Source: Actinomycetota bacterium
Lineage (GTDB): Bacteria > Actinomycetota > JBBINU01
NCBI GenBank assembly: GCA_037443725.1
Contig: JBBINU010000004.1
Location: 239,451-303,450, forward strand
Direction: 5' to 3'
Length of the DNA: 64,000 bases
Part shown: one piece after another, positions 1,374 to 25,184 of the stretch
Layout of the letters: each line of letters starts with the position of its first letter
Numbering within the stretch: position 1 is the stretch's first letter
Position numbers and translations under genes: made by a program
The notes under the pieces: model-generated
The model's input: the letters and a program-made list of their open reading frames with translations, nothing else
The model's database searches: none
Told to the model about the DNA's origin: nothing

Positions 1374-1388
1374 CGAGCCCCTTCCCGA

Positions 1389-3546: not shown

Positions 3547-3567
3547 CCTCACACCCGATCTTATGCT

Positions 3568-3966: not shown

Positions 3967-3984
3967 GGTCACCTCCTCCACCGG

Positions 3985-5268: not shown

Positions 5269-5292
5269 CCCCGAGGAACCCGCCGTTGAGGG

Positions 5293-5886: not shown

Positions 5887-5916
5887 TTGGCGGCAGTGTA
5901 GCAGGTGAGGCCAGGG

Positions 5917-6783: not shown

Positions 6784-6806
6784 CCGCCCACGCCAGGTCC
6801 GGACAC

Positions 6807-8593: not shown

Positions 8594-8611
8594 GCTCCCC
8601 TTCCCCAGCCG

Positions 8612-9745: not shown

Positions 9746-11097
9746 CTCAGCCCCGTGCAGTGCCCCGCCCCGCCAGCGCCGCCTCGGTCGGGTCGCTTTC
9801 GCTCCGGGCCCTCGGGGTAGAACTCGAAGACGGCCTCGCCTATCCTCACCTCGTCCCCCGCGCGAGCTCCCCTCCTTTCCAGCTCCCTCTCCACCCCCAC
9901 CCTCCTCAATCTCTCCTGGAGATAGGTGAGGGCCTCCGGGTTGGCCAGGTCCACCGCCCTCACCCACCGCTCCACCTGCCTGCCCTTCACCCGCCAGGCT
10001 CCATCCTCCCTCTCCACCAGAAAACCCACCTCCTCCGGGAAGACTCTGATCTGCACTGGCTCGGGTGCGGGCGGTGGTGCGGCCTCCACCATGCTGGCCA
10101 GGAACTCCACCAAGGGGGGAACACCCTCTCCCGTGAGAGCCGAGACAGCGAAGAAGGGAAGCCCGAGGACCCTCGCCCTGGCCTCCACTGCCCCGACGCG
10201 TTGCCCGGCCTCTTCCAGGTCTATCTTGTTGGCAGCCACCACGCCCGGGCGGGCCAGCAAGTCCGGACGGTAAAGCTCGAGCTCCCTCCTGAGGGCCTCC
10301 ACATCCTCCGCGGGGTCCCTGTCCTGGGCGGCGAGATCCACGAGGTAGAGAAAGACCCTCGCCCTCTCGACGTGCCTTAGGAACCTATCCCCCAGACCCC
10401 TACCGGCGTGGGCCCCGGGGATGAGTCCGGGCACGTCGGCCATGACGAACTCCCTCTCCCCCACTCTCACCACCCCGAGGTGCGGCGTTAAGGTGGTGAA
10501 GGGGAAACCCGCCACCCGGGGCCTCGCCCTCGATACCTTACGGAGGAGGCTCGACTTCCCCGCGTTGGGAAAACCGAGGATGCCCACATCCGCGAGGACC
10601 TTGAGCTCCAGGCGGAGAACCCTCCTCTCACCCTCCTCCCCCTTGAGGGCGAACCTGGGGGCCCTCCTGTCAGGGCCTGCCAGGGAGGCGTTACCCTTCC
10701 CGCCCTTCCCCCCTCTGGCCGCCACGTAGAAATCCCCCGGACGGGAGAGGTCGGCCAGGACACGCCCTTCTGCGTCCTTTACCACAGTGCCCACGGGCAC
10801 CGGCACGACCAGGTCTTCACCGTCCGCACCGCGGCGGTTCCCCCCCTCTCCGTGAGCTCCGTTCGCGGCCACGAGGTGCGGGTTTCGCTTCAGCTCCAGG
10901 AGGCTGGCTCGGGAAGTGGATGCGACCAGCACCACGTCACCGCCGTCCCCTCCGTCACCCCCGTCGGGACCACCCCTCGGCCTGAACTTCTCCCGCCTGA
11001 AGGAGACAGAGCCGGAGCCTCCCCGCCCGCCCGCGGCCACCACCCGTACCTCGTCCACGAACCGGCCAGGCTCTTCCGAACCGAACACCCGCTTCAC
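9742..11097 (-). CDS. obg: GTPase Obg/CgtA
   Basis: An Obg fold N-domain (FVDEVRVVAAGGRGGSGSVSFRREKF, glycine-rich repeats) is followed by G1-G4 GTPase motifs (GFPNAGKSSLL, DVPGLI, NKID) and an OCT/TGS-like C-terminal domain. The start is placed at the GTG preceded by GAGGATAA. The ORF track's first start codon at 11181 is also possible. Confidence 0.85.
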   Translation of the reverse strand: MKRVFGSEEPGRFVDEVRVVAAGGRGGSGSVSFRREKFRPRGGPDGGDGGDGGDVVLVASTSRASLLELKRNPHLVAANGAHGEGGNRRGADGEDLVVPVPVGTVVKDAEGRVLADLSRPGDFYVAARGGKGGKGNASLAGPDRRAPRFALKGEEGERRVLRLELKVLADVGILGFPNAGKSSLLRKVSRARPRVAGFPFTTLTPHLGVVRVGEREFVMADVPGLIPGAHAGRGLGDRFLRHVERARVFLYLVDLAAQDRDPAEDVEALRRELELYRPDLLARPGVVAANKIDLEEAGQRVGAVEARARVLGLPFFAVSALTGEGVPPLVEFLASMVEAAPPPAPEPVQIRVFPEEVGFLVEREDGAWRVKGRQVERWVRAVDLANPEALTYLQERLRRVGVERELERRGARAGDEVRIGEAVFEFYPEGPERKRPDRGGAGGAGHCTGLR

Positions 11098-11288
11098 AGC
11101 CCTAATTATCCTCGACGCGAGGGCTCCACCCTCCCAGCGGAAGGCGGGAGAAAGCCCTCGGGTCAAGCCGGATCTTGACACGGGGTCGGACGGGGGATAG
11201 CATCCCCTCGTTCGCTTGTGGGGTCTGGGGGTTTCCCGGCCCGGGGCCCGAATCCCTAACCCGGGTCGCTGGAAGGGAAGGGGGGTCT

Positions 11289-11756
11289 ATGCCAGCCCTT
11301 ACCATGCATCCGGAGAAGTGCACCCACTGTTTCCAGTGTGAGCTGGCCTGTACCTTCGTGCAGACTGGGTCCTTCGGAGTTTATCCCTCCCTAGTCAAGG
11401 TGTATCAGTTCGACGAGGAGGCGGCCTATACCGCCTACACCTGCACCCAGTGCGACGAAGCCTGGTGCATGATGGCCTGCCCAGTGGACGCCATAGTCGA
11501 GCGAGACGGTTTCAAAGTCGTTCTCGAGGAACTCTGCATCGGCTGCCGCCTCTGCGGTCTCGCCTGCCCCTTCGGAACCATCTTCTTTAAGCAGGACGGG
11601 AGCAAGGCGGCCAAGTGCACCACCTGCCTGGGGGAGCCGGCGTGCGCTGTGGCCTGCCCCACGGGGGCCATCGAGTGGGCTGAGGGGCCAAAGGACTGGG
11701 GGTTTTCGGCCTGGGCAGACAAGGTTAGCGAGGGCGCAGCCCTCGCCACCGTCTAG
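11289..11756 (+). CDS. 4Fe-4S ferredoxin-domain protein (multi-cluster), AOR-associated
   Basis: It has several CxxCxxCxxxCP motifs (CTHCFQCELAC, CTQCDEAWCMMACP, CIGCRLCGLACP, CTTCLGEPACAVACP). The start at MPALTMH is preceded by GGGAAGGGGGG. The gene lies immediately upstream of the AOR. Confidence 0.75.
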   Translation: MPALTMHPEKCTHCFQCELACTFVQTGSFGVYPSLVKVYQFDEEAAYTAYTCTQCDEAWCMMACPVDAIVERDGFKVVLEELCIGCRLCGLACPFGTIFFKQDGSKAAKCTTCLGEPACAVACPTGAIEWAEGPKDWGFSAWADKVSEGAALATV

Positions 11757-11824
11757 GGTCGACGCGCCCTGGGTCCCTGGAAGGTTCCAGGGAAATTTCC
11801 GGAGCGGAACCGGGAGGAGGAAAG

Positions 11825-13666
11825 GTGAAGGGCTGGACGGGCAAGGTCTTGAGGGTCGATCTCTCTAGCGGGAGCGCAGCCGCCGAACCCCTCCGGGAGG
11901 ACTGGGCCAGGCAGTACATAGGCTCCAGGGGGCTTGGGGTTCGCTACCTCTTCGAGGAAGTGGACCCGAGGGTCGACCCCTTCTCCCCCGAGAACAGGCT
12001 CTACCTCGTAACCGGTCCCCTCACCGGCACCTCCGCTTCCTGTGCGTCCCGGTGGACGGCGGTGACCAAGGGGCCCCTCACCGGGGCCGTGGCCACCTCG
12101 AACTCGGGAGGTCAGTGGGCGGCGCACCTCAAGTTCGCCGGGTACGACATGGTCATCCTGGAGGGAAGGGCGGCGAGCCCCTGCTACATCTGGATTGATG
12201 ACGGCAGGGCAGAGATCCGCGACGCCTCCCGTCTCTGGGGGAAGGGAATTTGGGAAACCGAGGAGCTCATCAAGGAAGAGCTCGGCACGGATCGGGTCTG
12301 GGTGGCGGGGATTGGACCCGCCGGCGAGAACCGGGTCCGCTTCGCCTCCATCATGAACGACAAGTACAGGGCGGCCGGCCGCTCCGGGGTGGGGGCCGTG
12401 ATGGGATCCAAGAACGTGAAGGCCATCGCCGTGCGGGGGAGGGGAGCGGTCGAGGTGGCAGACCCCGAAGCCTTTCACCGCGCGGTATGGCGGCTGAAAA
12501 GGCTCCTCAAGGAGAACCCCGTCACGGGGCAGGGCCTCCCCACCTACGGCACGGAGGTCCTCATGAATATCATCAACGAAGTGGGGGCTCTACCCACCCG
12601 CAACTTCCGCCAGTCCCAGTTTGAGGGGGCCTACGAGATCTCGGGGGAGAACCTGGCCGAGACCCGGCTCGTGAGGAACACGGCCTGCTTCGCCTGCACA
12701 ATAGGCTGCGGCAGGCTCTCCCGCATCTCCCGGGACGGCGTCACCCGGGTGAGCGTTTGGACCAGCCCGAGGCACTGGTCGGCCGCGGCGGAGGGGCCGG
12801 AATACGAGAACGCCTGGGGGCTCGGGGCCGAGACAGGCGTCTCGGATCTGGACGCCGTGGTGGCCGCCAACTCCCTCTGCAACGACTACGGCATGGACCC
12901 CATCTCCTTTGGGGCCACCCTCGGAGCCGCCATGGAGCTGTACGAGTCCGGCGTGATCACCGAGGCCGAGATAGGGATGCCTCTCCCCTTTGGCTCGTCC
13001 GAGGCCCTGGTGAGGATGGCTGAAGCCACGGCCTTCAGGAGGGGTTTCGGGGACGCGCTCGCCGAGGGAGCCAAGCGCCTTACCGAAAGGTACGGTAGGC
13101 CCGAGTTCTTCATGGGGGTGAAGGGGCAGGAGTTCCCCGCGTACGACCCGAGGAGCATTCAGGGGATGGGCCTCACCTACGCCACCTCCAACCGCGGCGC
13201 CTGTCACCTCAAGAGCTACACCGTGGCCTCGGAGGTCCTGGGCATACCCGAGAAGACCGACCCCCTGGCGACGCAGGGCAAGGCCGAGCTGGTTAGGGTC
13301 TTCCAGGATCTCACCGCCTGGTGGGACTCGACGGGGCTCTGCCTCTTCCTGGTCTTCGCCCCCGTGGTGGAGGTGGTGGCCGAGGTTCTCTCCGCAGGGA
13401 CAGGCATCCCCTACAGCCAGGAGGAGCTCATGAAGGCCGGGGAGAGGGTGTTCAACCTGGAGAGGGAGTGGATTGCGAGGGCGGGTTTCAGCACCACCGA
13501 CGACACCCTGCCGAGAAGGCTGCTAGAGGAACCTGTTCCCGCAGGCCCCACCCAGGGGCAGGTGAACCGACTCAGGGAGATGCTCGACGACTACTACCGG
13601 ATCCGCGGTTGGGAAGGGGGGCGGCCGACCCGGGCCAAGCTCCAGGAGCTGGGGATCCCCGCCTGA
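11825..13666 (+). CDS. Aldehyde:ferredoxin oxidoreductase (tungsten-containing AOR family)
   Basis: The 613-aa product shows full-length AOR-family similarity (MKGWTGKVLRVDLSSG…, a cysteine-containing [4Fe-4S] binding region, a C-terminal AFOR_C domain). It has a GTG start with a GGAGGAGG RBS. Confidence 0.9.
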   Translation: MKGWTGKVLRVDLSSGSAAAEPLREDWARQYIGSRGLGVRYLFEEVDPRVDPFSPENRLYLVTGPLTGTSASCASRWTAVTKGPLTGAVATSNSGGQWAAHLKFAGYDMVILEGRAASPCYIWIDDGRAEIRDASRLWGKGIWETEELIKEELGTDRVWVAGIGPAGENRVRFASIMNDKYRAAGRSGVGAVMGSKNVKAIAVRGRGAVEVADPEAFHRAVWRLKRLLKENPVTGQGLPTYGTEVLMNIINEVGALPTRNFRQSQFEGAYEISGENLAETRLVRNTACFACTIGCGRLSRISRDGVTRVSVWTSPRHWSAAAEGPEYENAWGLGAETGVSDLDAVVAANSLCNDYGMDPISFGATLGAAMELYESGVITEAEIGMPLPFGSSEALVRMAEATAFRRGFGDALAEGAKRLTERYGRPEFFMGVKGQEFPAYDPRSIQGMGLTYATSNRGACHLKSYTVASEVLGIPEKTDPLATQGKAELVRVFQDLTAWWDSTGLCLFLVFAPVVEVVAEVLSAGTGIPYSQEELMKAGERVFNLEREWIARAGFSTTDDTLPRRLLEEPVPAGPTQGQVNRLREMLDDYYRIRGWEGGRPTRAKLQELGIPA

Positions 13667-13693
13667 GGACGACCTTCGGAGGAAGGAGGGGAG

Positions 13694-15055
13694 ATGCCGG
13701 GAAGCAACGTCGTTGTGGGGGCGGGACCTGCGGGGCTCGCCGCGGTGAGGGAGTTGAAGGCGAGGGACCCCCGCTCCCCCGTCACCCTCGTCTCGGACGA
13801 GGCCCCCTACGCGAGGATGGCCCTCCCCTATTTCCTCAAGGGGGAGATAGTCGAGGAGAGGCTTGCCACGGCGGATCGGGGGGAACTGGAGGGGATGGGG
13901 GTGGAGGTCCTCTCGGGGAGGAGGGCGATCTCCCTGGATCCCGCCTCAAGGACCCTCCAGCTCGATGACGGGTCCTCCCTCTCCTACGAGAACCTTCTGC
14001 TCGCCACAGGGTGCCGGCCCGTCAAGCCCGACGTGCCTGGCCTAGAAGGCCCGGGGGTGAGCCACTTCTGGACCCTTGCCGATGCCCGGGCCCTCTCGTC
14101 CACGGCTGGGCCGGGGAAGGACATTCTTCTGCTCGGGGGCGGCTTCATAGCCTTCGTGGCTCTCCCTGCTCTCCTCGCCCGCGGCTGCCGGGTGACGGTG
14201 GTGGAGGCCCTCGAGCACGTCCTGCCGCGGATGCTCTCCGCCCTTCCGGCCAGACTTGTGGAGGGCTGGATCTCGGGGAGGGGAGTGGCCGTCCACACCG
14301 GGGAGACCCTCGAGGCCCTAGAGAGGCGGGATGGCAGGCTCGTCGGGGCCCTTAGGGGGGGCGGGCGTGTGGAGGCCGATCATGTTCTTGTCGCCACCGG
14401 CATCGCTCCCAACGTGGAGCTGGCCAGGCAGGCGGGGATCAGGGTGGAAACGGGGATCGTGGTGGATGACGCCATGCGCACCTCGAGCCCGGGCGTGTAC
14501 GCGGCTGGCGACTGCGCCCAGGCCAGAGACATTCTCGGGGGGAGCACGACACCCCACTACATCCAGCCCGCCGCGGTCGACCAGGGCAGGGTGGCAGGCG
14601 CTGCCATGGCCGGAGAAGAGGTGAGGTACCCCGGCTCCCTCTCCATGAACAACCTCTCCCTCATGGGTCTCGACGTGGTGGCGGTAGGCGATGCCAGAAG
14701 CGAGGAGGGGACCCTCTCCGAGATCCGCGGTCACGGACCCAGTTACCGGAGGCTCGTGATCCGCGAGGGAAGACTCGTTGGGGCGGTTTTCCTCGGGCCG
14801 AGCTCCGAGGTGTTCGCGACCCCGGCGGTGGGGATGGCCAAGGGGCTGATCCAGAGCCAGGCGGAGCTCGGGCGCTGGGCCGGAGTCCTGGCGGAGGATC
14901 CACTTCAGCTGGAGAAGGCGTACTTCGCTGTGGGGGCGCCTGCGGCCATCATTAGGACTACCCTCCTTGGGGTCCCGAGCCGGCCGAGGAGAGAGAGGAC
15001 CGAGGTCCCCGTGGCCAACTGGCCCCACCACGGAACCCTGGTGGGAACGGTCTAG
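13694..15055 (+). CDS. FAD-dependent pyridine nucleotide-disulfide oxidoreductase (ferredoxin/rubredoxin-reductase-like)
   Basis: It has an N-terminal GxGxxG (VVVGAGPAGLAA) and a second dinucleotide fold (LLLGGGFIAFV), plus a …AAGDCA… motif. An AGGAGGGGAG RBS precedes the start. Confidence 0.8.
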   Translation: MPGSNVVVGAGPAGLAAVRELKARDPRSPVTLVSDEAPYARMALPYFLKGEIVEERLATADRGELEGMGVEVLSGRRAISLDPASRTLQLDDGSSLSYENLLLATGCRPVKPDVPGLEGPGVSHFWTLADARALSSTAGPGKDILLLGGGFIAFVALPALLARGCRVTVVEALEHVLPRMLSALPARLVEGWISGRGVAVHTGETLEALERRDGRLVGALRGGGRVEADHVLVATGIAPNVELARQAGIRVETGIVVDDAMRTSSPGVYAAGDCAQARDILGGSTTPHYIQPAAVDQGRVAGAAMAGEEVRYPGSLSMNNLSLMGLDVVAVGDARSEEGTLSEIRGHGPSYRRLVIREGRLVGAVFLGPSSEVFATPAVGMAKGLIQSQAELGRWAGVLAEDPLQLEKAYFAVGAPAAIIRTTLLGVPSRPRRERTEVPVANWPHHGTLVGTV

Positions 15056-15198
15056 CAGGCCCTCGCCGCCCCCCAGCCTGCCTGGAGGCGGCCGGGGGCT
15101 TTGCCCCTCTGCTGCCCTTGGAGACGAGGGTCATCCACGTGCCTTTCGGCCTAGAATCTCGGGGACCTCGAGCTCGAGGCCGACGAAAGGGGTGACCC

Positions 15199-16038
15199 GT
15201 GGCGATCCGTTGGGAAAGGGCCCTCGTCACGGGCGCGTCCAGCGGCATCGGCCGGGCTTTCGCCCGCGCCCTGGCCGCCCGCGGAACCCACCTCATCCTG
15301 GTGGCGAGGAGGAGGGAGAGGCTCGAGGAGCTCGCCGGCGAGCTCCGGCGGGCCCACGGGGTCGAGGTGGAGGTCATCGCGGCAGACCTGCTCCACCCTT
15401 CGGACCTCGCCCGCGTCGAGGAGAGGCTCCGCGACCCCAGCCGCCCCCCCGACCTCCTCGTAAACAATGCGGGTATAGGGAATGCGGGCCCCTTCTGGCG
15501 GCTGCCCCTTGAGGGCGAGGAGGCAACCGTCGGCCTGAACGTCACCGCCCTCCTCAGGCTCACCCGCGCTGCCCTTCCGGGCATGGTGGAGCGGGGATGG
15601 GGGGGAGTCCTTAACGTCTCCTCCCTGGCAGGCCTCCTCCCTCAGCCCCATGCCTCCACCTATGCGGCCACCAAGGCCTTCGTCACGGTTTTCACCGAGT
15701 CCCTGGCGGAGGAGCTCCGCGGGACCGGGGTAAGGGTCCTCGCCCTCTGCCCCGGTTACACCAGAACCGAGTTCCACCAGAGGAAGGACTTCGCCCACCT
15801 CCAGCAGGAGGAGCAGCACCCCGGCGGCTCGGGCCTCCCCGCATTCCTCTGGGCGAGCCCGGATCGGGTGGCGGAAGAGGGACTCAGGGCCCTGGAGAGG
15901 GGAAAGGTGGTCCACATACCGGGCAGTCTGTACCGGACCACCTACGCCCTTGCGCGCCTCCTCCCCCGGGCTATGGTCCGGGCAGCCAGCGGCGGGGTAA
16001 TGAGGCTGAGCGCGAGAAGGCCTCTGGCGCGGGGATGA
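15199..16038 (+). CDS. Short-chain dehydrogenase/reductase (SDR)
   Basis: The TGASSGIGRA cofactor motif, the NNAG motif and a YxxxK active site (YAATKAF) are present. It has a GTG start. Confidence 0.85.
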   Translation: MAIRWERALVTGASSGIGRAFARALAARGTHLILVARRRERLEELAGELRRAHGVEVEVIAADLLHPSDLARVEERLRDPSRPPDLLVNNAGIGNAGPFWRLPLEGEEATVGLNVTALLRLTRAALPGMVERGWGGVLNVSSLAGLLPQPHASTYAATKAFVTVFTESLAEELRGTGVRVLALCPGYTRTEFHQRKDFAHLQQEEQHPGGSGLPAFLWASPDRVAEEGLRALERGKVVHIPGSLYRTTYALARLLPRAMVRAASGGVMRLSARRPLARG

Positions 16039-16220
16039 GGCTGGGGCCGGACACGACGGGGCGGGCTCCAGCGGGAGCAAGCAAAGGGCTAGCCGCCTGC
16101 AAGCAGGTGGTGTAGGCTTCCCCCGACCGGAAAGACTCCTCTTCCCACTCCGGCCCCCAACCGGGCGCCCGAGGGGGAGACCTGGGGGAGGTCAATGAGA
16201 GGAGGGATCGGGAGGTGGTC

Positions 16221-17525
16221 ATGTACCCCATGGAGGTGCTGGCGCAGCCCATAGCCCTGCCCGAGGCCATCGACCTGGAGGAGTGGGTCCTCGCAACCTA
16301 CCTTATTTCCGCCCCGAAGGACTTCCCCATGACCTGGCTCTCGCAGGCCCTCGCCGTGGAACAGAGCACCGGAACCTGGACCCCCGTGCCCGGCGAGACA
16401 CCCGAAGTGCGGGCGGGCCACGTTGCCAAGGTGGTTGGGATCTACGAAGTCCCCGACTATGAGTGGCAGGTGCCGGCAGGCCTGGAGGAACGGCACTACG
16501 TGGTTCAGATCGCCTACCCGGAGGTGAACATAGGGGAGCAGATCCCCCTCCTCCTCACCACCGTGATCGGGAACATCTCCATGGCGGGGAAGCTCAAGCT
16601 ATTGGACTTGAGGTTCCCCAAACGTTTTCTCGCCGGCTTCCAGGGGCCGAAGTTCGGTGTGCAGGGAATCAGGGAGATCCTGGGTGTACGGGAAAGGCCT
16701 CTCCTTAACGCCATGATCAAACCGAACACGGGATACCCGGTGGAGGTAGGGGCCGAGCTTTTCCGCGAGTGCGCCCTCGGGGGCTGCGACATCATCAAGG
16801 ACGACGAGCTCCTGGCGGACGCTTCCTTCAGCAGCGTGGAGCGGAGAGTCAAGGCCTACATGGAGGTGGAAAGGCAGGTCTACGAGGAGACGGGGGAGCA
16901 CACCCTTTACACCGTGAACATCACCGACAAGATACCCAAGGTTTTCGAGAACGCTCGCCGGGCGCTGGAGGTGGGGGCCAACGCCCTTATGGTGAACTAC
17001 GTTCCCTCCGGGTACGCGGTGCTCCAGGCCCTGGCCGAGGATCCAGAGATAAACGTTCCCATCCTCGGCCACGTGGATGTGGCCGGAGCCCTGTACATGT
17101 CGCCCGACCACGGAATCGGCTCCACCCTGGTGGTGGCCAAGCTCCCGCGCCTTGCCGGAGCTGACATGGTCATCATCCCGGCGCCCTACGGGAAGGGTCC
17201 GGTCCTGGAGGAGAAATTCCGGGCCTGGGGCAGAGCCCTCACTTACCCCTTCGCCCACATCAAGCCGACCCTCCCCATGCCCTCAGCAGGGATCACGCCG
17301 TCCATGGTTCCTCGGTGCGTCCAGGATCTTGGCCGAGACCAGGTAATTGCCGCAGGAGGAGGGATCCACGCCCACCCCCAGGGTCCGAAAGCCGGAGCCC
17401 GTGCCTTCCGGCAGGCCATAGAGGCGGTCATGAAGGGAATACCCCTGGCGGAGGCAGCCAGGGAGTACCCGGAGCTCGCCGCCGCCCTCGAGCGCTGGCC
17501 CGACCCCTTCGGCAAGGGGGTGTGA
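16221..17525 (+). CDS. RuBisCO large-subunit-like protein (RLP, form IV-type)
   Basis: It is homologous to RuBisCO large chains, with the catalytic 'GGCDIIKDDE' segment (K201/D203/E204 equivalents), a GGGIHAH (His327 region) motif and 'IKPNTG' replacing the IKPKLG segment (Lys177 to Asn). The start is placed at the ATG with a GGGAGGTGG RBS. The track's 16215 start is 2 codons upstream. Confidence 0.85.
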   Translation: MYPMEVLAQPIALPEAIDLEEWVLATYLISAPKDFPMTWLSQALAVEQSTGTWTPVPGETPEVRAGHVAKVVGIYEVPDYEWQVPAGLEERHYVVQIAYPEVNIGEQIPLLLTTVIGNISMAGKLKLLDLRFPKRFLAGFQGPKFGVQGIREILGVRERPLLNAMIKPNTGYPVEVGAELFRECALGGCDIIKDDELLADASFSSVERRVKAYMEVERQVYEETGEHTLYTVNITDKIPKVFENARRALEVGANALMVNYVPSGYAVLQALAEDPEINVPILGHVDVAGALYMSPDHGIGSTLVVAKLPRLAGADMVIIPAPYGKGPVLEEKFRAWGRALTYPFAHIKPTLPMPSAGITPSMVPRCVQDLGRDQVIAAGGGIHAHPQGPKAGARAFRQAIEAVMKGIPLAEAAREYPELAAALERWPDPFGKGV

Positions 17526-17573
17526 GGAGGACCATCCGGGGATGGGGCGGCCAGCCCTGGAAGGAGGGAGCCC

Positions 17574-18797
17574 ATGGGCAGAGTGACGGTGCTCGGAGGA
17601 GCAGGGGCGGTGGGTTCCGTGGCCGTGAGAACCCTGGCCGCCGATGGGACCTTCGAGGAGATCGTCATAGCCGACGCCGATTCCTCCCGGGCGGAGGCCC
17701 TCGCGGATTCCGTCGGGAGCCGGGCGCGGGCGGTGAAAGTGGACGCGGGAGACCCCGAGGCCGTGAGGCGGGTGGTCGAGGGTTCGGATGTGGTGCTGAA
17801 CACGGTGGGGCCCTTCTTCAGGTTCGGTCCCCCTGTCCTGGAAGGGGCCATCCGAGCGGGTGTGAACTACGTGGACGTCTGCGACGATTTCGACGCCACC
17901 GAGAGGCTCCTCGCCATGGATGAAAGGGCAAGGCAGGCAGGGGTGACCGCTCTCATCGGGATGGGCAGCTCCCCAGGGGCGGCCAACGTGATAGCCAGGT
18001 TCGCCGCCGACCATCTTCTGGACGAGGTGGAAGCAATAGACATCTACCACGCCCACGGAGGGGAGCCCGAGGAGGGAAGGGCCGTCCTGGCCCATCGGCT
18101 CCATTCCATGACAGTGGACATCCCCGTCTTCCTTGACGGGGAGTTCAGAACCGTCCGGCTCTTCGAGGAAAGCGGCCGGGCCCTCGAGGAGGAAGCGGAG
18201 TTCCCGGAGATCGGGACTTTTCGGGTCTACGCCTACCCCCACCCCGAGACCATCACCTTCCCCCGCCACATCAAGGGGCTGAAGCGCTGCACCAATCTGG
18301 GGCTCGTCCTTCCCCCAGCCTATGCCGAGCTTATAAAGGACGTGGTCCGCCTTGGCCTAGCCACCAGCGAACCCCTGGATGTCCTCGGCCAGAAGGTCAT
18401 CCCCTTCGAGTTCGCCATCTCCTTCATCCTCTCCCAGCGCCCGCGCCTTCTTCAGGCGGCGGGAATGAAGGAACCCGTGGGCTGCCTCAAGATCGTGATC
18501 CGGGGCACTAAGGATGGAAAGGAAGAGAGCTGGGCGGTCTCCCTGGCTTCGCGCGGGCGGGGCATGGGAGAGGGAACTGGCATCCCTGCGGCCGTGGGAG
18601 CCATCCTCATGGCCCAAGGGAAGGTGAAGGGCCCGGGAGTCCTTCCCCCCGAGGCCTGCGTGGACCCGGCGGACTTCTTCTCTGCGGTCCAGCGCTCCCT
18701 CCAGGCCACGGGAGCGGGAGGTCTCCCCATCATTGTCGAGAGGAGGAGGGAGGGGAAGACCGAGAGGCTTGACGTCTCCTCCCTCCTCAGCGCCTAG
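17574..18797 (+). CDS. Saccharopine-dehydrogenase-family NAD(P)-binding oxidoreductase
   Basis: It has an N-terminal Rossmann motif (VTVLGGAGAVGSVAV) and similarity to the Sacchrp_dh_NADP family. An RBS GGAGGGAG precedes the ATG. Confidence 0.75.
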   Translation: MGRVTVLGGAGAVGSVAVRTLAADGTFEEIVIADADSSRAEALADSVGSRARAVKVDAGDPEAVRRVVEGSDVVLNTVGPFFRFGPPVLEGAIRAGVNYVDVCDDFDATERLLAMDERARQAGVTALIGMGSSPGAANVIARFAADHLLDEVEAIDIYHAHGGEPEEGRAVLAHRLHSMTVDIPVFLDGEFRTVRLFEESGRALEEEAEFPEIGTFRVYAYPHPETITFPRHIKGLKRCTNLGLVLPPAYAELIKDVVRLGLATSEPLDVLGQKVIPFEFAISFILSQRPRLLQAAGMKEPVGCLKIVIRGTKDGKEESWAVSLASRGRGMGEGTGIPAAVGAILMAQGKVKGPGVLPPEACVDPADFFSAVQRSLQATGAGGLPIIVERRREGKTERLDVSSLLSA

Positions 18798-18849
18798 GCG
18801 GTCGCCGCGATCCGTCGTCGGGCAGGCGAGGGGAGAGAGCGGGGGCGGA

Positions 18850-20379
18850 GTGGCCGGAGGAACTTACATCCTCGCCCACGATGTCGGTACCTCGGGAAAC
18901 AAGGCCGTCCTGGTCGACCTGGATGGTAGGCTGGTGGCCAAGGCGGTCCAGCCTTACCGGGTGAGCTACCCGAGGCCGGGGTGGGCGGAGCAGGATCCCG
19001 AGGACTGGTGGGGGGCGGTCGCCAGGACCACCCGGGAAGTGCTCGGAAGATCCGGCGTGGCCCCCGAGGAGGTGGCCTGCCTCACCTGGAGCTACCAGCT
19101 TCTCGGGATAGTCCCCATGTCCCGCCGGGGGGAGGTCATAAGACCGGCCATCCTCTGGCTGGACAGCAGGGCCGAGGAGGAGGCCCGCAAGGCCATGAGG
19201 AAGCTCGGGGGGCCCCGGATCTTTCGCCTCCTGGCGGGGGCCACCATCACAGGTAAGGACGGCATCCCCAAGCTCCTCTGGCTCAAACGTCAGGAACCCG
19301 AGACGTACAGGGCTATGGACTTCTTCCTTGACGTCGGGGGGTACCTCGTCTGGCGCGCCACGGGCAGGGCCGTCATGGACCTCACGGGGGCTTCCGCCTT
19401 CGGCCTCGACCTCAAAAAGAAGACGTGGCTCAGGGGGTTCATGAGCTACCTCGGCCTCGACACGAGCAAGCTCCCGCCCTTGGTGAGGTCCGTGGAGGTG
19501 GTGGGGGGGCTCACCCGGGAGGCCGCAAGCGACCTCGGCCTTAAGGAGGGAACCCCCGTCGTGGCCGGAGCGGGCGACGTCCCCTCGGCCTCCGTCGGCG
19601 CTGGCGCTGTCGGAGAGGGCGAGGGTCACCTCTACCTCGGAACATCGGCCTGGCTTGCGGTGGTGACTTCCAGGACCCCGAGGGGAAAGCACGGCGTGGT
19701 GGCCATCCAGTCTGCAGACCCGAGCATGAACCTTCTCCTGGCGGAGATGGAGACAGCGGGGGCCTGTGTGGAGAGGGTCGCAGGGGAGCTCTACCGCCAC
19801 GAGGCAGGTTCCGGCGGCAGGGAAGCGGCCTTTGAGGCCATGAACGCCGAGGCCGAGAAGGCGCCCCCGGGCTCCGCCGGCCTCATCTTCCTTCCCTGGA
19901 TGTACGGGGAGCGCTCCCCCATCTCGGACAGCCTTCTCCGGGCGGCCTTCGTCAACTTAAGCCTCGACCACGGCAGGGAACACCTTGCTCGCTCCGTCTA
20001 CGAGGGGATCTCCTTCAACATCAGATGGGCCCTGGAGGTGGTGGAGGGCGGCTTCGGAGTCCGCCTTCCCTCCTTGAGGGTGATAGGCGGAGGGGCCCTC
20101 TCCAGGCCCTGGATGCAGATCCTCGCGGACGTCACGAACAGGCCCGTGGAGGTGGTCCAGGAACCCCAGGAGGCGGGGGCGGTGGGGGCTGCCCTCACGG
20201 CCGCCGTAGGCATCGGCGCTCACCCTGGGTTCCCCCACCTCCGGAACCTCGTAAGGATAGCCGCCCGGTACGAGCCCCTCCCTGGCAGGGAGGGGCTCTA
20301 CGACGGTCCCTACCGGGCCTTCAAGGATCTCTACGCGGCCCTCCGGGGCATCTACCACCGCCTGAACAGGCCCGGGTAG
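18850..20379 (+). CDS. FGGY-family carbohydrate kinase (xylulokinase/glycerol-kinase-like)
   Basis: An N-terminal 'TYILAHDVGTSGNKAVLVD' sugar-kinase motif is present, with FGGY_N and FGGY_C architecture. The start is placed at a GTG (V40 of the track ORF) just downstream of the upstream gene's stop, rather than at 18733, which overlaps the upstream gene by 64 nt. Confidence 0.8.
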   Translation: MAGGTYILAHDVGTSGNKAVLVDLDGRLVAKAVQPYRVSYPRPGWAEQDPEDWWGAVARTTREVLGRSGVAPEEVACLTWSYQLLGIVPMSRRGEVIRPAILWLDSRAEEEARKAMRKLGGPRIFRLLAGATITGKDGIPKLLWLKRQEPETYRAMDFFLDVGGYLVWRATGRAVMDLTGASAFGLDLKKKTWLRGFMSYLGLDTSKLPPLVRSVEVVGGLTREAASDLGLKEGTPVVAGAGDVPSASVGAGAVGEGEGHLYLGTSAWLAVVTSRTPRGKHGVVAIQSADPSMNLLLAEMETAGACVERVAGELYRHEAGSGGREAAFEAMNAEAEKAPPGSAGLIFLPWMYGERSPISDSLLRAAFVNLSLDHGREHLARSVYEGISFNIRWALEVVEGGFGVRLPSLRVIGGGALSRPWMQILADVTNRPVEVVQEPQEAGAVGAALTAAVGIGAHPGFPHLRNLVRIAARYEPLPGREGLYDGPYRAFKDLYAALRGIYHRLNRPG

Positions 20380-20405
20380 CAGAGTGGGGAGCCGCCGCTA
20401 GCCCC

Positions 20406-21380
20406 TCACCCCCCTATCTGCGACATGCTCCGGTGGGGGCGGAGAAAGTCTGGCTTTCCTATGCGATGACCCGCCCACTTCCTGGCAACGGCGGCCCTGA
20501 TGAGTCCCTCGAGCTCCTCATCGCTCGCACCCGCCCGGAGGGGACCCTTCAGGTCCGTCTCCTCCAGCGCAAAAAGGCAGGTCCGGAGCTGCCCGTCAGC
20601 GGTGAGCCTAACCCTGTTGCAGGAGGAGCAGAAGGGGTCTGTTACGGAGGAGATGAAGCCCACGGCGCCCGGGGAACCGTCGGCGAAGCGGTACACTTTT
20701 GCGGGCTGGGGCCTCCCATCGGAGTAGATCAGGGGGAACCTCGCGGCCACCGCCGCGTAGGCCTCGTGCCAGGGGACCACCTTTCCCCATTCCCAGGCCC
20801 TCTCAGCATCCAGGGGCATGTACTCGATGAATCTCACCTCGTAGCCTGTAGCTCTGGCCAGTTCCGCAAAGGACAGAACCTCGTCCTCGTTCACCCCGCG
20901 AATGAGAACGCAGTTCAGCTTGATCGGCCAGAAGCCGGCTTCCTCGGCCGCCCGCAGCCCCTCAAGAACCCTTTGGAAGACCCTCCGCCTGACGACCGAG
21001 GCATACTTTGAGCCCACCAGGGAGTCCAGAGAGACCGTGACGCGGTCCAGGCCGGCCTTCCGAAGAGGTCCCGCCAGGGAGGGGAGGAGAATCCCATTGG
21101 TTGTGATGGAGAGGTCCAGGTGGGGTCCGACCTCTCGTACCGCCCGGACGATATCCACAAGATCCGGTCGGAGGGTGGGTTCGCCACCCGTCAGTTTCAC
21201 TTCCTCCACCCCGAGCCCCACGAAAATCCGGACCAGGCGCCCTATCTCCTCGGCAGTGAGGACCTCCTCTCGCGGGAGCCACGGCAGGCCCTCCTTCGGC
21301 ATGCAATAGGTACAACGGAGGTTGCAGCGGTCGGTGACGGAAACGCGAAGGTCCCTCACCACCCGGCCGAAGGAGTCCAC
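20406..21380 (-). CDS. moaA: GTP 3',8-cyclase (molybdenum cofactor biosynthesis protein A)
   Basis: A radical-SAM motif (RVSVTDRCNLRCTYCMP), the MoaA twitch/C-terminal Cys motifs (CSSCNRVRLTADGQLRTCLF) and a C-terminal GG are present. The start is placed at a GTG about 10 aa before the CxxxCxxC motif. The track ORF (485 aa) carries a 160-aa Gly/Arg/Pro-rich extension that is probably non-coding. Confidence 0.75.
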   Translation of the reverse strand: MDSFGRVVRDLRVSVTDRCNLRCTYCMPKEGLPWLPREEVLTAEEIGRLVRIFVGLGVEEVKLTGGEPTLRPDLVDIVRAVREVGPHLDLSITTNGILLPSLAGPLRKAGLDRVTVSLDSLVGSKYASVVRRRVFQRVLEGLRAAEEAGFWPIKLNCVLIRGVNEDEVLSFAELARATGYEVRFIEYMPLDAERAWEWGKVVPWHEAYAAVAARFPLIYSDGRPQPAKVYRFADGSPGAVGFISSVTDPFCSSCNRVRLTADGQLRTCLFALEETDLKGPLRAGASDEELEGLIRAAVARKWAGHRIGKPDFLRPHRSMSQIGG

Positions 21381-21583
21381 CAGAGGCGCCCGCGCCCCAG
21401 AGCCCTCGGAACGGGCGGGCCGAACCGGGACCGCACTCCAGAGGGAAGTACCGGCGGCTGAACTGTCTTGAGGCACAGGGACCGGGGCCGCAGAAGCAGA
21501 GGGGCCTCTCCTGGCTGCTGCCTTCTCAGTCACGGCGGCTCCTCGTAGGCCACCTCCCCGACCGCCCCGGCAGGCGGATTCTA

Positions 21584-22726
21584 TCACCTTCCCGCCACTG
21601 CCCCCGCTGCCAGGAGTTTCCCTATTTCCTCCCGGGTGAAACCCCACTCCTCCAGGACCTCGGCGGTGTGCTCCCCGGGTCTCGGTGGCGGACGCCTCAC
21701 ACCCCCCGGGGTCCTCGTGAACCTCGGAGCCGGCCCGGGCTGCAGGACACCGTCGAGGGTGATGAAGTTTCCCCGGGCCCTGTTGTGGGGGTGCTCGGGG
21801 GCCTCGGACATGGCCAGGACTGGGGCGAAGCAGGCGTCGGTTCCCTCGAGCACCTCCCGCCACTCCTCCCGGGTCTTCGTCTTGAAGACCCTGGCCAGGA
21901 CCTCCCGAAGTTGGGGCCAGCGAGAGCGGTCTGTCGGGGGCGGGAGGTCGTCCGGGCCGAGCCCGAGGCGCTCCAGGAGCTCCCGGTAGAACTGGGGCTC
22001 CAGGGCCCCGACCGCGACGTACTTACCGTCGGCCGTCTCGTACACGTCGTAGAAGGGGGCTCCCGAGTCGAGGAGGTTCACTCCCCTTTCCTCGCTCCAC
22101 ATCCCCATGGCCTTGAGCCCGTAGGTCATGGCCATTAGCAGGGCCGCTCCGTCCACCATGGCGACGTCCACGACCTGCCCCTGGCCCGAACGGAGGGCTT
22201 CCAGCAACCCGGCGACTACCCCGAAGGCGAGGAGCATCCCCCCGCCGCCGAAATCCCCCACCAAGTTGAGAGGCGGAACCGGAGGCTGCCCGGCCCGGCC
22301 CACGTGGGCGAGGACCCCCGCGAGGGCGATGTAGTCGATGTCGTGGCCGGCCGCGTGGGCCAGGGGGCCCTCCTGGCCCCAACCCGTCATCCGGGCGTAG
22401 ACGAGCCGTGGGTTCCTCGCCATGCAGGCTTCGGGTCCAACACCCAGCCTCTCCACAACCCCCGGCCTGAAACCTTCGATGACGGCGTCAGCCTTCTCCG
22501 CAAGCCTGAGGACCACCTCGGGTCCGTGCGGGTTCTTGAGATCGACCGCGACTGACCTCTTCCCCCTGAGCAGTGGATCGAGGGGGCGGCCCGAGGCTTC
22601 CCTTGCCGCCTCCACCCGCTCCACCCGTACCACGTCAGCCCCCATGTCTGCCAGGACCATTCCCCCGAAAGGGGCAGGGCCTATCCCGCCCAGCTCCAGC
22701 ACCCTTATTCCTGAAAGAGGTCCCAC
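21584..22726 (-). CDS. CoA-transferase family III protein (CaiB/BaiF/alpha-methylacyl-CoA-racemase-like)
   Basis: It shows family III CoA-transferase similarity throughout ([13 protein letters not shown]…, [12 protein letters not shown]…, catalytic Asp region [13 protein letters not shown]). The start is placed at a GTG preceded by AAAGGAGGT. The track start at 22750 is 8 codons upstream. Confidence 0.8.
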
Positions 22727-22914
22727 CTCACCTCCTTTCGCCCGTACCACTCCGGGGACCGCCTTTCCCTGTAGACTGCGTCACGCCCCTGGGGAAGCCG
22801 GCCTCGACCTCCCGGTCGAACCCCCGCTCTTCCCCACCCTTTGGAGGTGCCGGGCGGGGCTATGCTAACCGTTGGGGTCCCGAGCCGCCCTAGGAGTAGC
22901 CCAAGGAGGGGAAG

Positions 22915-24879
22915 ATGCCGGTGGAGGAGGGAGCGCTTCTCTGGCGGCCCTCGGAGGAGTGGACGGAGCGGGCCGCCATCACCAGGTACATGGCGTGGCT
23001 CAAGGAGAAGAGGGGGCTGGAATTCGCCTCCTACGAGGAGCTATGGGAGTGGTCCGTGAGCGACCTCGATGGTTTTTGGTCGTCGGTCGCGGATTTCTTC
23101 GGGGTTCGCTTCCGGAAGCCGTGGTCCCGCGTGCTCGCCTCGAGGGAGATGCCTGGCGCACGGTGGTTCGAAGGAGCCGAGCTGAACTACGCGGAGCATG
23201 CCTTGGCCAGGAGGGACGACGCTCCCGCGTTCATCTTTGCCAGGGAGGACGGCTTCAGGCGGACCATGACCTACGCCGAGCTTTACCGGGCCGTCGCCAG
23301 GGTCCAGGCAGGGCTCGAGGCCCTGGGGGTCCGCCGCGGAGACCGGGTGGCGGCATACCTTCCGAACGGGCCCGAGGCCCTCATCGCCCTCCTCGCCACA
23401 GCCGGCCTCGGGGCCATCTGGTCCTCCTGCTCTCCAGACTTCGGGGTGAGGGCGGTGGTGGACAGATTCCGCCAGATCGAGCCGAAGGTGCTCCTGGCCG
23501 TAGACGGCTACCTGTATGGGGGCAAGGCCTTTCGTCGCCTGGAAGAGGTGGCCGAGGTGGAGAAGGAAATACCCAGCCTCGAGGCGACCGTGGTCGTTCC
23601 GTACCTCGAGTCCAATCCCGATCTCTCGACCCTCGCCAGGGGTCTTCTCTGGAGAGAGCTGGAGGCCGATGCCCGCGAGGTCCGCTTCGAGGCGGTTCCC
23701 TTCGACCATCCCCTCTGGATCCTCTACTCCTCGGGCACCACGGGTCTGCCCAAGGCCATGGTTCACGGCCACGGAGGTATTCTCTTGGAGCACCTCAAGG
23801 CCCTCTCCCTCCACCATGACATCGGCCCCGGGGACGTCTTCTTCTGGTTCACCACGACGGGGTGGATGATGTGGAACTTCCTCATAAGCGGCTTGCTGCT
23901 CGGTGCCACCATCGTCATGTACGACGGAAGCCCCGGCTACCCCGACATGATGGCCCTCTGGAGGCTGGCTGAGGAGACCCGCATGACCTGCTTCGGGACG
24001 AGCGCCCCCTACATCCTGGCCTGCATGAAGGCGGGAATTCGCCCTGCCGAGCGCGATCTCTCGTCCTTAAGGAGCGTGGGCTCAACAGGGGCCCCTCTCC
24101 CGCCCGAAGGCTTTCAGTGGGTGTACGAGAACGTCAAGGCCGATCTGGATCTCGGCTCCATGAGCGGTGGGACAGACCTGTGCACCGCCTTTGTCGGTGC
24201 CTGCCCCATCCTCCCCGTCTACGCCGGGGAGATCCAGTGCCGCATGCTCGGGGCAAAGGTGGAGGCCTTCGATGAAGAGGGCAGGGCCGTGGTGAACCAG
24301 GTTGGGGAGCTAGTCCTCACCGAGCCCATGCCGTCCATGCCCGTCTTCTTCTGGGCCGACCCCGACGGAAAGAGGTACAGGGAGAGCTACTTCGAGTTCT
24401 TCCCGGGCGTCTGGAGGCATGGGGACTGGGTCAAGGTGACGGAGAGGGGAACCGTTGTCATCTACGGCCGGTCGGACTCGACCCTGAAGCGCGCGGGGGT
24501 ACGGATGGGGACGAGCGAGTTCTACCGAGTGGTTGAGGAGATGCCCGAGGTCGTCGACTCCCTGGTCGTGGACACAGGGGAACTTGGCAAAGAGGGCAAG
24601 CTCGTCCTCTTCGTCCAGGCCGCCGAGGGCGTGGACTTCCAGGAGCTCGCCCTTCGCATCCGGGAGAAGGTGAGGAGGGAGCTCTCCCCGAGGCACGTGC
24701 CCGACCTCGTGTTGCCCGTGCCCTCCGTTCCAAGAACCCTGAACGGGAAGAAGCTGGAGGTCCCCATCAAAAGGATTCTTCTCGGAGCCCCCCTGGAGAA
24801 GGTTGTAAACCCAGGGGCCGTGACCGACCCGGAAGCGGTTAGGTTCATAGCGGAGCTCGCGAAGACCCTCGAGCTCTGA
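22915..24879 (+). CDS. Acetoacetyl-CoA synthetase (acetoacetate--CoA ligase)
   Basis: The 654-aa product shows AACS-type N-terminal similarity (WRPSEEWTERAAITRYMAWL…) and AMP-binding motifs (YSSGTTGLPKAMVH, …GDW…). An RBS GGAGGGGAAG precedes the start. Confidence 0.85.
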   Translation: MPVEEGALLWRPSEEWTERAAITRYMAWLKEKRGLEFASYEELWEWSVSDLDGFWSSVADFFGVRFRKPWSRVLASREMPGARWFEGAELNYAEHALARRDDAPAFIFAREDGFRRTMTYAELYRAVARVQAGLEALGVRRGDRVAAYLPNGPEALIALLATAGLGAIWSSCSPDFGVRAVVDRFRQIEPKVLLAVDGYLYGGKAFRRLEEVAEVEKEIPSLEATVVVPYLESNPDLSTLARGLLWRELEADAREVRFEAVPFDHPLWILYSSGTTGLPKAMVHGHGGILLEHLKALSLHHDIGPGDVFFWFTTTGWMMWNFLISGLLLGATIVMYDGSPGYPDMMALWRLAEETRMTCFGTSAPYILACMKAGIRPAERDLSSLRSVGSTGAPLPPEGFQWVYENVKADLDLGSMSGGTDLCTAFVGACPILPVYAGEIQCRMLGAKVEAFDEEGRAVVNQVGELVLTEPMPSMPVFFWADPDGKRYRESYFEFFPGVWRHGDWVKVTERGTVVIYGRSDSTLKRAGVRMGTSEFYRVVEEMPEVVDSLVVDTGELGKEGKLVLFVQAAEGVDFQELALRIREKVRRELSPRHVPDLVLPVPSVPRTLNGKKLEVPIKRILLGAPLEKVVNPGAVTDPEAVRFIAELAKTLEL

Positions 24880-24920: not shown

Positions 24921-25184
24921 ATGCAGGTCACGGTTAAGCTCTACGCCACCCTCGGGAGGTTCCTGCCGCCAGGGTCGAGGAACCGCTCGGCCGAGATGGA
25001 GGTGGGGGAGGGGACGACCCTTCTTGACCTCCTCGACTCCCTCGGCATCCCCCCCGCCGAGAGGCACCTGGTCGTGCTGAACGGGAGGCAGATCGAGGGC
25101 AGGGACCGGGAAGCCCTGGCCGAGACGAGGCTTACCCCGGGGGCCACCGTCGCTGTCTTCCCTCCCGTGGCGGGCGGTCGCTGA
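24921..25184 (+). CDS. MoaD/ThiS-family sulfur-carrier-like protein (ends …VAGG-R)
   Basis: The 87-aa product has a beta-grasp-like sequence (MQVTVKLYATLGRF…) and sits immediately upstream of moeA. It has a C-terminal Gly-Gly followed by one extra Arg before the stop. Confidence 0.6.
   Translation: MQVTVKLYATLGRFLPPGSRNRSAEMEVGEGTTLLDLLDSLGIPPAERHLVVLNGRQIEGRDREALAETRLTPGATVAVFPPVAGGR

Follow-up and report, generated by a model that had tools for sequence, protein, structure and literature searches.

The RuBisCO-like protein and its active site

The window analysed here, a 64-kb stretch of contig JBBINU010000004.1 from an Actinomycetota bacterium, encodes a form IV RuBisCO-like protein (RLP; 434 aa, 16221–17525, + strand) with Pfam matches to RuBisCO_large (1.6e-47) and RuBisCO_large_N (PF00016, PF02788). 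It is followed, after gaps of 48 bp and 52 bp respectively, by genes for a saccharopine-dehydrogenase-like protein (SDHL; 407 aa, 17574–18797, +; Pfam Sacchrp_dh_NADP and Sacchrp_dh_C) and a xylulokinase-like FGGY-family carbohydrate kinase (509 aa, 18850–20379, +; Pfam FGGY_N and FGGY_C). The RLP is the core of a module, conserved across several phyla, to which the other two genes belong. As an earlier note on this DNA had stated, all of the flanking genes are present, and the seven genes between 11289 and 20379 are co-directional and closely spaced. The host genome has a GC content of 65–70%, and no sequence in the protein collection exceeds 59% identity to its Obg protein, with the best named matches coming from Actinomycetota metagenome-assembled genomes (MAGs) and a 55% match to Thermaerobacter; the host lineage is deep and poorly sampled.

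The earlier note had placed the RLP in form IV, outside the characterised types, and profile comparisons bear this out. The protein falls under every NCBIfam cut-off: it scores 394 bits and 354 bits against the two models for the methionine-salvage enolase MtnW (NF007095, cut-off 409; TIGR03332, cut-off 513.6), compared with 652 and 641 for a genuine representative of MtnW; 268 bits against the rubisco_III model (cut-off 497); and 195 bits against the OiaX model (NF042437, cut-off 700). As is typical of form IV RLPs, it combines the RuBisCO large-subunit fold with replacement of RuBP-binding or catalytic residues, here K177, R295, H298 and H327, and it consequently lacks the complete active site of the bona fide RuBisCOs of forms I–III.

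We numbered RLP residues by spinach RbcL, the sequence of which is identical to PDB 8RUC/1IR1, using an alignment that also included Geobacillus kaustophilus MtnW and 30 family members, and compared them across 95 family loci. The motifs singled out in the earlier note, GGCDIIKDDE, GGIH and IKPNTG, are all present (read in the window as GGCDIIKDDE, AAGGGIHAHP and MIKPNTGY). Residues E60, T65, W66, N123, K175, K201, D203, E204, H294, K334, G381 and G403/404 are invariant in the clade, and S379 is retained in most of its sequences. The RLP therefore has the set associated with carboxylation in bona fide RuBisCO (the putatively carbamylated K201, together with D203, E204, K175, H294, K334, E60, T65 and N123). 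By contrast, K177 is replaced by Cys in the family and by Asn (Asn169) in the window, R295 by Met in the family and Val in the window, H298 by Ala or Thr (Ala in the window), H327 by Val (Ile in the window), and S328 by Ile, Phe or Tyr (Ile in the window). In RuBisCO structures, R295, H298 and H327 are ligands of the distal (C5) phosphate; T65, W66, G381 and G403/404 are those of the proximal (P1) phosphate, and K334, E60 and N123 place CO2 and keep hold of the carboxylate of the intermediate. Because the replacements map in this way onto ligand roles in RuBisCO, the clade has lost the second (distal) phosphate site, which is occupied by apolar residues, yet has kept the machinery for enolisation and carboxylate handling.

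This pattern alters one argument of the earlier note, which had reasoned that the RLP is no bona fide carboxylase because its Lys177 equivalent is Asn. The residue itself was read correctly, as alignment to spinach RbcL places Asn169 at that position, but Asn is found in the window alone and Cys in the 94 other loci. That R295, H298 and H327 of the distal phosphate site are gone argues better against carboxylation of ribulose 1,5-bisphosphate than does this idiosyncratic residue. CO2 chemistry on a monophosphate substrate may still occur, since E60, N123, K175, K201, H294 and K334 are all kept. The window RLP is in addition the only one of the 95 with Asn169, Val285, Ile318, Gly326 and Ala356; in the other 94 loci the corresponding residues are Cys, Met, Val, Ala (Gln in the probably archaeal loci) and Gly, the last four positions being near-invariant. 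Five concerted changes near the active site may reflect a shifted specificity in the deep-branching lineage of the window.

If the RLP were an ordinary MtnW, acting as 2,3-diketo-5-methylthiopentyl-1-phosphate enolase in methionine salvage, its neighbours would be unrelated to its function. Its best NCBIfam and PDB matches are indeed MtnW proteins, and public databases annotate clade members as MtnW or RuBisCO, with IMG/JGI giving many of them the former name. The clade also shares with MtnW/YkrW (2OEK, 2ZVI) the form IV fold, the KDDE metal site, K175, H294 and the P1 glycine loops, and the distal phosphate site of MtnW is likewise hydrophobic. However, both MtnW equivalog cut-offs are missed, and MtnW has Gly in place of E60, Ser in place of K334 and, in place of N123 (Asn118 in the window, invariant in the family), its catalytic lysine, Lys98 of the G. 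kaustophilus enzyme. It is because MtnW differs precisely at the carboxylate-handling positions 60, 123 and 334 that, on residue grounds, we reject membership of the RLP in MtnW. Phylogeny points the same way: in a crude neighbour-joining tree of 96 representatives, the window RLP falls, with ~50% bootstrap, in a group of ~28 that stands apart from a monophyletic MtnW group, and most members of the group have the E60/N123/K334 signature and lack R295. In the annotated part of the neighbour clusters, the clade is consistently partnered by an FGGY kinase and an amine enzyme rather than by mtnK, mtnA, mtnB, mtnX or mtnD. Moreover, most of the hosts live anaerobically and would be unable to carry out the later, O2-dependent step of methionine salvage. 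The MtnW assignment is largely refuted, and we regard it as very improbable.

A protein search recovered hundreds of RLP sequences with 66–71% identity, their sources being Chloroflexota (Anaerolineae, Dehalococcoidia, Thermoflexales), Caldisericota and Calditrichota; identity among family members across phyla is 65–71%. When a single genome was scanned for each species, at least 412 relatives were recovered, nearly all from MAGs, with Acidobacteriota, Actinomycetota and Deferribacteres among them. The clade is large, with its species-level genomes coming mostly from uncultured Chloroflexota, Caldisericota and their kin, and probable archaea, and it is unusually constrained (mean column identity of 82% in a 30-sequence alignment). 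Its members are routinely misannotated as methionine-salvage enolase or RuBisCO.

A conserved unit of kinase, RuBisCO-like protein and amine enzyme

We compared the neighbourhoods of 82 non-redundant related loci. An FGGY kinase (40–60% identity) adjoins the RLP in 72 of them, usually directly upstream and in some cases with a 4-bp overlap; eight of the ten loci without an adjacent kinase have less than 1 kb of upstream sequence. An amine/carbonyl enzyme adjoins the RLP in 66 of the 82 loci. This enzyme is an SDHL, encoded directly downstream of the RLP, in 37 loci, and a class-III aminotransferase of one of two kinds in the others ('c6' in 15, 'c3' in 14). Aminotransferase 'c6' is encoded upstream of the FGGY kinase; 'c3', which resembles glutamate-1-semialdehyde aminomutase and GntE, is mostly encoded directly downstream of the RLP. 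The three kinds are mutually exclusive, with no locus having two of them, and 11 of the 16 loci without an amine enzyme have short flanks. We conclude that the RLP, SDHL and FGGY kinase form a conserved unit, the core of which is the kinase, the RLP and an interchangeable amine enzyme. That SDHL is interchangeable with class-III aminotransferases suggests for it an amine/carbonyl step rather than a generic oxidoreductase step.

The module recurs in Chloroflexota, Caldisericota, Calditrichota, Acidobacteriota, Actinomycetota and probable archaea. The usual order is FGGY-RLP-SDHL, and the order RLP-SDHL-FGGY is found in the window and in an Acidobacteria MAG (L058). We considered whether the adjacency of the three genes could be fortuitous, with the RLP, SDHL and kinase belonging to separate transcription units with unrelated roles. 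A promoter/terminator scan of 11000–20600 gave no usable signal in this 67% GC DNA, and so does not speak against such an arrangement. However, the same families adjoin one another in dozens of loci from several phyla, and the linkage persists despite varied gene order, with short gaps and, in some loci, 4-bp overlaps. Because the arrangement is conserved, we consider fortuitous adjacency, which the earlier note had raised as a possible objection, to be refuted, and we give it almost no credence. The linkage of the genes also leads us to conclude that the kinase, the RLP and the amine/carbonyl enzyme share one pathway.

The partners of the RLP named in the earlier note fared unevenly in this comparison. 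SDHL and the FGGY kinase are conserved with the RLP; the short-chain dehydrogenase/reductase (SDR), ferredoxin and FAD oxidoreductase genes are not, and the tungsten-type aldehyde:ferredoxin oxidoreductase (AOR) is found in few lineages. The note had also remarked that the partners differ from the mtn and DUF1537 sets of known RLP pathways, which is correct for the conserved neighbours, namely FGGY kinases together with SDHL or class-III aminotransferases. Its proposal of an undescribed pathway gains from the conservation of the unit and from the lack of a matching paper among those found, but it had missed the exchange of SDHL for aminotransferases, and with it the amine/carbonyl step; the finding is more general than was recognised there. 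In the literature searched, we found no paper that joins an RLP with an FGGY kinase or a saccharopine dehydrogenase, and nothing relevant on saccharopine dehydrogenase, FGGY kinase and aldolase together. Papers mentioning RLPs in these phyla leave this gene context unanalysed, and a paper on the RLP of a Hakuba actinobacterium concerns a different gene context. The combination of an FGGY kinase and an amine enzyme as RLP partners has not been described before, and its logic, with a kinase and an RLP acting on a monophosphorylated keto compound, is like that of known RLP sugar-phosphate pathways.

A class-II-aldolase-family (aldolase-II) gene accompanies SDHL-FGGY-RLP in nine loci. A probably archaeal cluster, present in eight metagenome loci and rearranged in L089, consists of aldolase-II (+), a major facilitator superfamily (MFS) transporter (−) and SDHL-FGGY-RLP (+); we consider it probably archaeal because one SDHL member is annotated as Ca. 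Bathyarchaeota and because L089 has a PAC2 gene. SDHL-FGGY-aldolase-II also occurs with no RLP nearby in three loci: L094, and L087 and L088, where an MFS gene lies in between. Members of the MFS family (35–44% identity) are also found in bacterial loci (L016, L038, L045, L057, L065 and L084); aldolase-II genes are missing from the surroundings of most bacterial loci. The pathway includes a dedicated transporter in many lineages, and sometimes an aldolase-II enzyme. The aldolase-II protein reaches no curated cut-off, scoring 166 bits against the L-ribulose-5-phosphate 4-epimerase subfamily, 124 against ribulose-1-phosphate aldolase, 123 against 3-oxo-tetronate-4-phosphate decarboxylase, 119 against FucA and 90 against MtnB (cut-off 137).

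Several loci depart from the common layout. In L040 (Dehalococcoidia; 1333–14170) the FGGY-RLP-SDHL trio occurs twice as a perfect inverted duplication, both copies having equal identities to the query; the duplication may be genuine or may have arisen in assembly. A divergent second FGGY kinase (31–34% identity) is encoded in L038 (Ca. Cryosericum septentrionale, 1638–11302), where the order is MFS, second FGGY, class-III aminotransferase (−), aldolase-II (−) and, further on, FGGY-RLP; L051 and L059 also have such a gene. This second kinase hints at two phosphorylation steps or two related substrates. Small proteins encoded between FGGY and RLP, or after RLP, in Anaerolineae loci were checked as aldolase-II or HAD candidates and proved to be unrelated insertions.

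A proposed pathway and its alternatives

The AlphaFold2 model of SDHL has a predicted local distance difference test score (pLDDT) of 90, and its best structural matches are carboxyspermidine dehydrogenases (TM ~0.8; 8deb, 8h4z), followed by L-lysine dehydrogenase, saccharopine reductase/dehydrogenase and BioU. These close structural relatives all carry out C=N redox chemistry joining an aldehyde or ketone with an amine. SDHL scores 63 bits against the carboxy(nor)spermidine dehydrogenase equivalog (NF043000, cut-off 800), so it shares the fold of that family and lies outside it; its homologues, with 59–65% identity, are a large conserved family of their own. At the end of strand beta-2, Asp34 is invariant in 120 of 120 SDHL family members; the carboxyspermidine dehydrogenase that uses NADPH has Ser-Arg there. 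On the rule usually applied to Rossmann folds, SDHL is therefore predicted to use NAD(H), which would fit an oxidative, catabolic direction. There is precedent for the exchange of a saccharopine-dehydrogenase fold for a class-III aminotransferase. In biotin synthesis, BioU replaces the class-III aminotransferase BioA, so that the two folds swap for the same ketone-to-amine conversion across organisms; BioU differs in that it matches SDHL only distantly (TM ~0.5), and the substrate here is unrelated to biotin.

The FGGY kinase has both the N- and C-terminal FGGY domains. XylB is the best of the FGGY models, at 326 bits (cut-off 380.25), with the gluconokinase model at 211 bits; among PDB entries, the kinase is most similar to 3ifr and E. 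coli XylB (2itm).

The reading we favour, tentatively and with somewhat less than even confidence, is that the RLP, SDHL and FGGY kinase are one conserved functional unit of an undescribed pathway whose substrate would be a small polyhydroxy compound with an amino substituent, an amino-hydroxy acid or amino-polyol being the probable choice. We infer the direction of the pathway, the order of its steps and the type of chemistry from the gene linkage, the residue pattern and the fold of SDHL, which the analysis established. First, the NAD-dependent SDHL, or a class-III aminotransferase in other genomes, would turn the amine into a carbonyl. The FGGY kinase would then phosphorylate a terminal hydroxyl, and the RLP would take the monophosphate at its conserved P1 site and enolise it by means of a carbamylated Lys193-Mg2+ centre (with D195, E196, K167 and H284). 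The combination of a kinase and an importer would argue for catabolism or salvage rather than biosynthesis. The chemistry of the RLP is most likely the breaking or making of a C–C bond with CO2, a prediction based on the invariant retention in the clade of K325 (equivalent to K334), E47 (E60) and N118 (N123), unlike in enolase and isomerase RLPs. The leading candidate, modelled on OiaC, would be a decarboxylase reaction that turns a beta-keto-acid phosphate into a ketose phosphate.

Such a pathway would resemble the D-apiose (OiaC/OiaT/OiaX) and OtnC pathways, in which a keto group is made, a terminal hydroxyl is phosphorylated, and the resulting keto-acid monophosphate is taken up by an RLP or an aldolase-II-family enzyme. 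In some loci here aldolase-II likewise occurs alongside or instead of the RLP, and this mirrors the two decarboxylases of those pathways, the RLP OiaC and the aldolase-II-family enzyme OtnC. Moreover, the OiaX-nearest representatives keep E60, N123 and K334, where MtnW has Gly, Lys and Ser. The systems differ in that the kinase here is FGGY and theirs is DUF1537; in that the keto group here apparently comes from an amine, by SDHL or an aminotransferase, and theirs from a hydroxyl dehydrogenase; and in that the OiaX-nearest representatives keep R295 and H327, both of which are missing from the clade.

Several observations count against this proposal. The hydrophobic distal pocket, like the alkyl-tail pocket of MtnW, could equally indicate a deoxy or thioether tail, and hence salvage of S-adenosylmethionine (SAM) by-products. 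AOR, iron-dependent alcohol dehydrogenase (Fe-ADH) and 2-hydroxyacid dehydrogenase genes near some clusters suit an aldolase route, yielding dihydroxyacetone phosphate (DHAP) and an aldehyde, better than a decarboxylase. Aldolase-II often co-occurs with the RLP rather than replacing it, and the two may act sequentially. Retention of K334, E60 and N123 supports CO2 chemistry by correlation only, and the similarity of the MFS protein to lactate/galactonate carriers is weak. With a bootstrap of only ~50% for its place in the neighbour-joining tree, the classification of the RLP depends mainly on residue signatures and profile cut-offs. Lastly, the AlphaFold2 model of the RLP, built from the 30-sequence alignment, is poor (mean pLDDT of 64, with residues 285–357 below 50), too poor for pocket inspection, and we used it neither for that nor for a fold search.

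The main alternative for the chemistry is isomerisation or epimerisation driven by enolisation. Here the RLP would be an isomerase or 3-epimerase, and its substrate a ketose 1-phosphate whose tail is either short or apolar (deoxy or methylthio), in a deoxy-sugar route or in salvage of SAM by-products such as 5-deoxyribose and methylthioribose. The substrate would be made by a FucK/RhaB-like FGGY kinase, and the product would be cleaved by a class-II aldolase to DHAP and an aldehyde. AOR would then oxidise the aldehyde, Fe-ADH reduce it, or SDHL or an aminotransferase aminate it. Consistent with this, MtnW is the nearest characterised relative of the RLP (2oek, 3e-91, ~41% identity) and has a similarly hydrophobic distal pocket; aldolase-II genes, of the family that includes FucA, Ald2, DrdA and MtnB, adjoin in the probable archaeal loci and also in L038 and L171; HAD hydrolases are encoded in L087, L132 and L172; AOR, Fe-ADH and 2-hydroxyacid dehydrogenase genes lie near some modules; and the module is often found amid housekeeping genes, without a regulator. 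In Rhodospirillum rubrum, moreover, anaerobic metabolism of methylthioadenosine requires a bona fide RubisCO; it yields methylthiolactate and S-methylcysteine, and the role of RubisCO in it is unexplained (PMC4958253). On the other hand, the kinase is FGGY rather than MtnK or DrdK, and the annotated conserved neighbours include no MtnA/DrdI-type isomerase, MtnP or MtnN. K334 and E60, both kept invariantly by the clade, are gone from the known isomerase and enolase RLPs; aldolase-II is not near the module in most bacterial loci; and the amine enzyme, the most constant third partner, is left unexplained. We consider this alternative possible, if on the unlikely side.

Two characterised systems bear on this alternative. 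The DeepYkr RLP of R. rubrum, a 5-methylthio-D-ribulose-1-phosphate 1,3-isomerase, is an RLP that acts on an apolar-tailed ketose 1-phosphate by enolisation (PMC6302742), but its partner is a cupin methylsulfurylase, and no kinase or amine enzyme has been reported as a partner. Among those neighbour clusters of the clade that were annotated, we noticed no cupin. The L-fucose/L-rhamnose route (FucK/RhaB, FucA/RhaD, FucO) resembles the probable archaeal loci in its combination of an FGGY kinase, aldolase-II and Fe-ADH or an aldehyde-oxidising enzyme. The loci here differ in having no sugar isomerase and in the addition of an RLP and an amine enzyme, and none of their proteins reaches the fucose or rhamnose cut-offs.

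The RLP could instead be a true carboxylase of a ketose monophosphate (for example erythrulose-1-phosphate, ribulose-1-phosphate, xylulose-1-phosphate or 5-methylthio-ribulose-1-phosphate), which it would carboxylate and cleave hydrolytically in the manner of RuBisCO, producing 3-phosphoglycerate and a non-phosphorylated acid. Every carboxylation residue is invariant, and so is the P1 site, with just the P2 site and K177 lost. By our own chemical reasoning, RuBisCO-type cleavage of 5-methylthio-ribulose-1-phosphate would give 3-phosphoglycerate and methylthiolactate, the latter being the RubisCO-dependent R. rubrum metabolite of unexplained origin (PMC4958253). However, K177 is replaced by Cys or Asn, a gene context with phosphoribulokinase-like or CO2-concentrating functions is absent, and the RLPs known for CO2 chemistry, OiaC and OiaT, decarboxylate or transcarboxylate rather than fix CO2. 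We therefore regard a true carboxylase as unlikely.

A bolder reading would make the clade a RuBisCO-type CO2 lyase specialised for a monophosphate, whether as a decarboxylase or as a genuine carboxylase (turning, for instance, a ketose 1-phosphate into 3-phosphoglycerate and a non-phosphorylated acid), in a widespread new pathway of anaerobic bacteria and archaea that starts with deamination of an amino-polyhydroxy compound; it could be the dedicated counterpart of the unexplained RubisCO-dependent methylthiolactate/S-methylcysteine route of R. rubrum. This reading we hold to be rather doubtful. Candidate substrates that we weighed were 4-hydroxythreonine/2-oxo-tetronate, AI-2 (autoinducer-2)/DPD (4,5-dihydroxy-2,3-pentanedione)-phosphate, serinol/DHAP, amino-deoxy sugars, 5-deoxyribose and methylthioribose; none stood out from the others, and we assert none of them.

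Functions have been assigned to only a handful of RLP clades, and sugar-phosphate chemistry not known before has emerged each time. The present clade is a natural experiment in the repurposing of the RuBisCO active site, with CO2-handling residues kept and the second phosphate site lost, and its well-defined partner set makes its function directly testable. With the right function assigned, the metabolism of abundant subsurface anaerobes could be reconstructed better, and there would be an end to false calls of carbon fixation and methionine salvage.

Accessory genes and distant relatives

Upstream of the RLP in the window, and separated from it by 182 bp, is the SDR gene (15199–16038, +; Pfam adh_short). 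Its membership in the module is unsupported: no other locus has a homologue of it near the RLP, the lone exception being a 59%-identical one located 8 kb away in L082. Further upstream, and identified by Pfam and NCBIfam matches, are genes for a 4Fe-4S protein (11289–11756, +), a member of the AOR family (11825–13666, +) and an FAD/NAD oxidoreductase with a Pyr_redox_2 domain (13694 (or 13745)–15055, +). The three products resemble a three-subunit NAD-linked tungsten aldehyde oxidoreductase with a PadH-like FAD/NAD subunit, the AorABC type of which is known from Aromatoleum. In NCBIfam comparisons, PadI-like and PadH-like matches among these genes score 81 and 248 bits, both under the cut-offs. 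Homologues of the AOR adjoin SDHL-FGGY-RLP in L096, L112, L117 and L122 (52–55% identity) and in L022 (39%), and adjoin FGGY and aldolase-II in L118, L119 and L123 (33–35%). AOR is absent from the great majority of loci (~80 other bacterial loci), and may be an occasional, weakly supported accessory of the module.

Genes for pterin-cofactor synthesis surround the window cluster, encoding MoaA (radical-SAM, Mob_synth_C; 20406–21587, −), a ThiS/MoaD-like small protein (24921–25184, +) and a MoeA-like protein (25186–26460, +). They are consistent with supply of a tungsten/molybdenum cofactor to AOR, and a ThiS-like gene is also found alongside AOR in L096, L112, L117 and L122. Directly downstream of the cluster are genes for a family III CoA-transferase (21584–22750, −) and an acetoacetyl-CoA-synthetase-like AMP-binding enzyme (22915–24879, +), for which we saw no link to the module in other loci. 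Elsewhere in the 64-kb window there is no homologue of the class-III aminotransferases, aldolase-II, HAD or module-type MFS proteins, and an Rfam scan for riboswitches in the window and seven related loci returned only tRNAs.

More distant RLPs (43–55% identity) have related partners, with class-III aminotransferases, FGGY kinases and aldolase-II genes found next to relatives of 47–55% identity, and some others stand alone. In L170, a class-III aminotransferase gene lies directly upstream of the RLP. L171 (1258–12841) has a LivK/Peripla_BP_6-type ABC transporter directly upstream of RLP-FGGY, together with aldolase-II (−), an Rrf2 regulator and a class-III aminotransferase, a layout that fits uptake of an amino compound. 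L172 (Lachnospiraceae) combines an IMPase-family gene, the RLP, an AP_endonuc_2 gene, an FGGY kinase, a GntR regulator and a HAD hydrolase. In a Desulfosporosinus MAG (L086, 8245–19735), an RLP 48–50% identical to the query is encoded among glycerol and glycolysis genes, its neighbours being glycerol-3-phosphate dehydrogenase (GlpA/B/C-like), pyruvate kinase, enolase, glycerol kinase and a glycerol facilitator, which suggests DHAP or another three-carbon phosphate as the substrate of this sister RLP subfamily.

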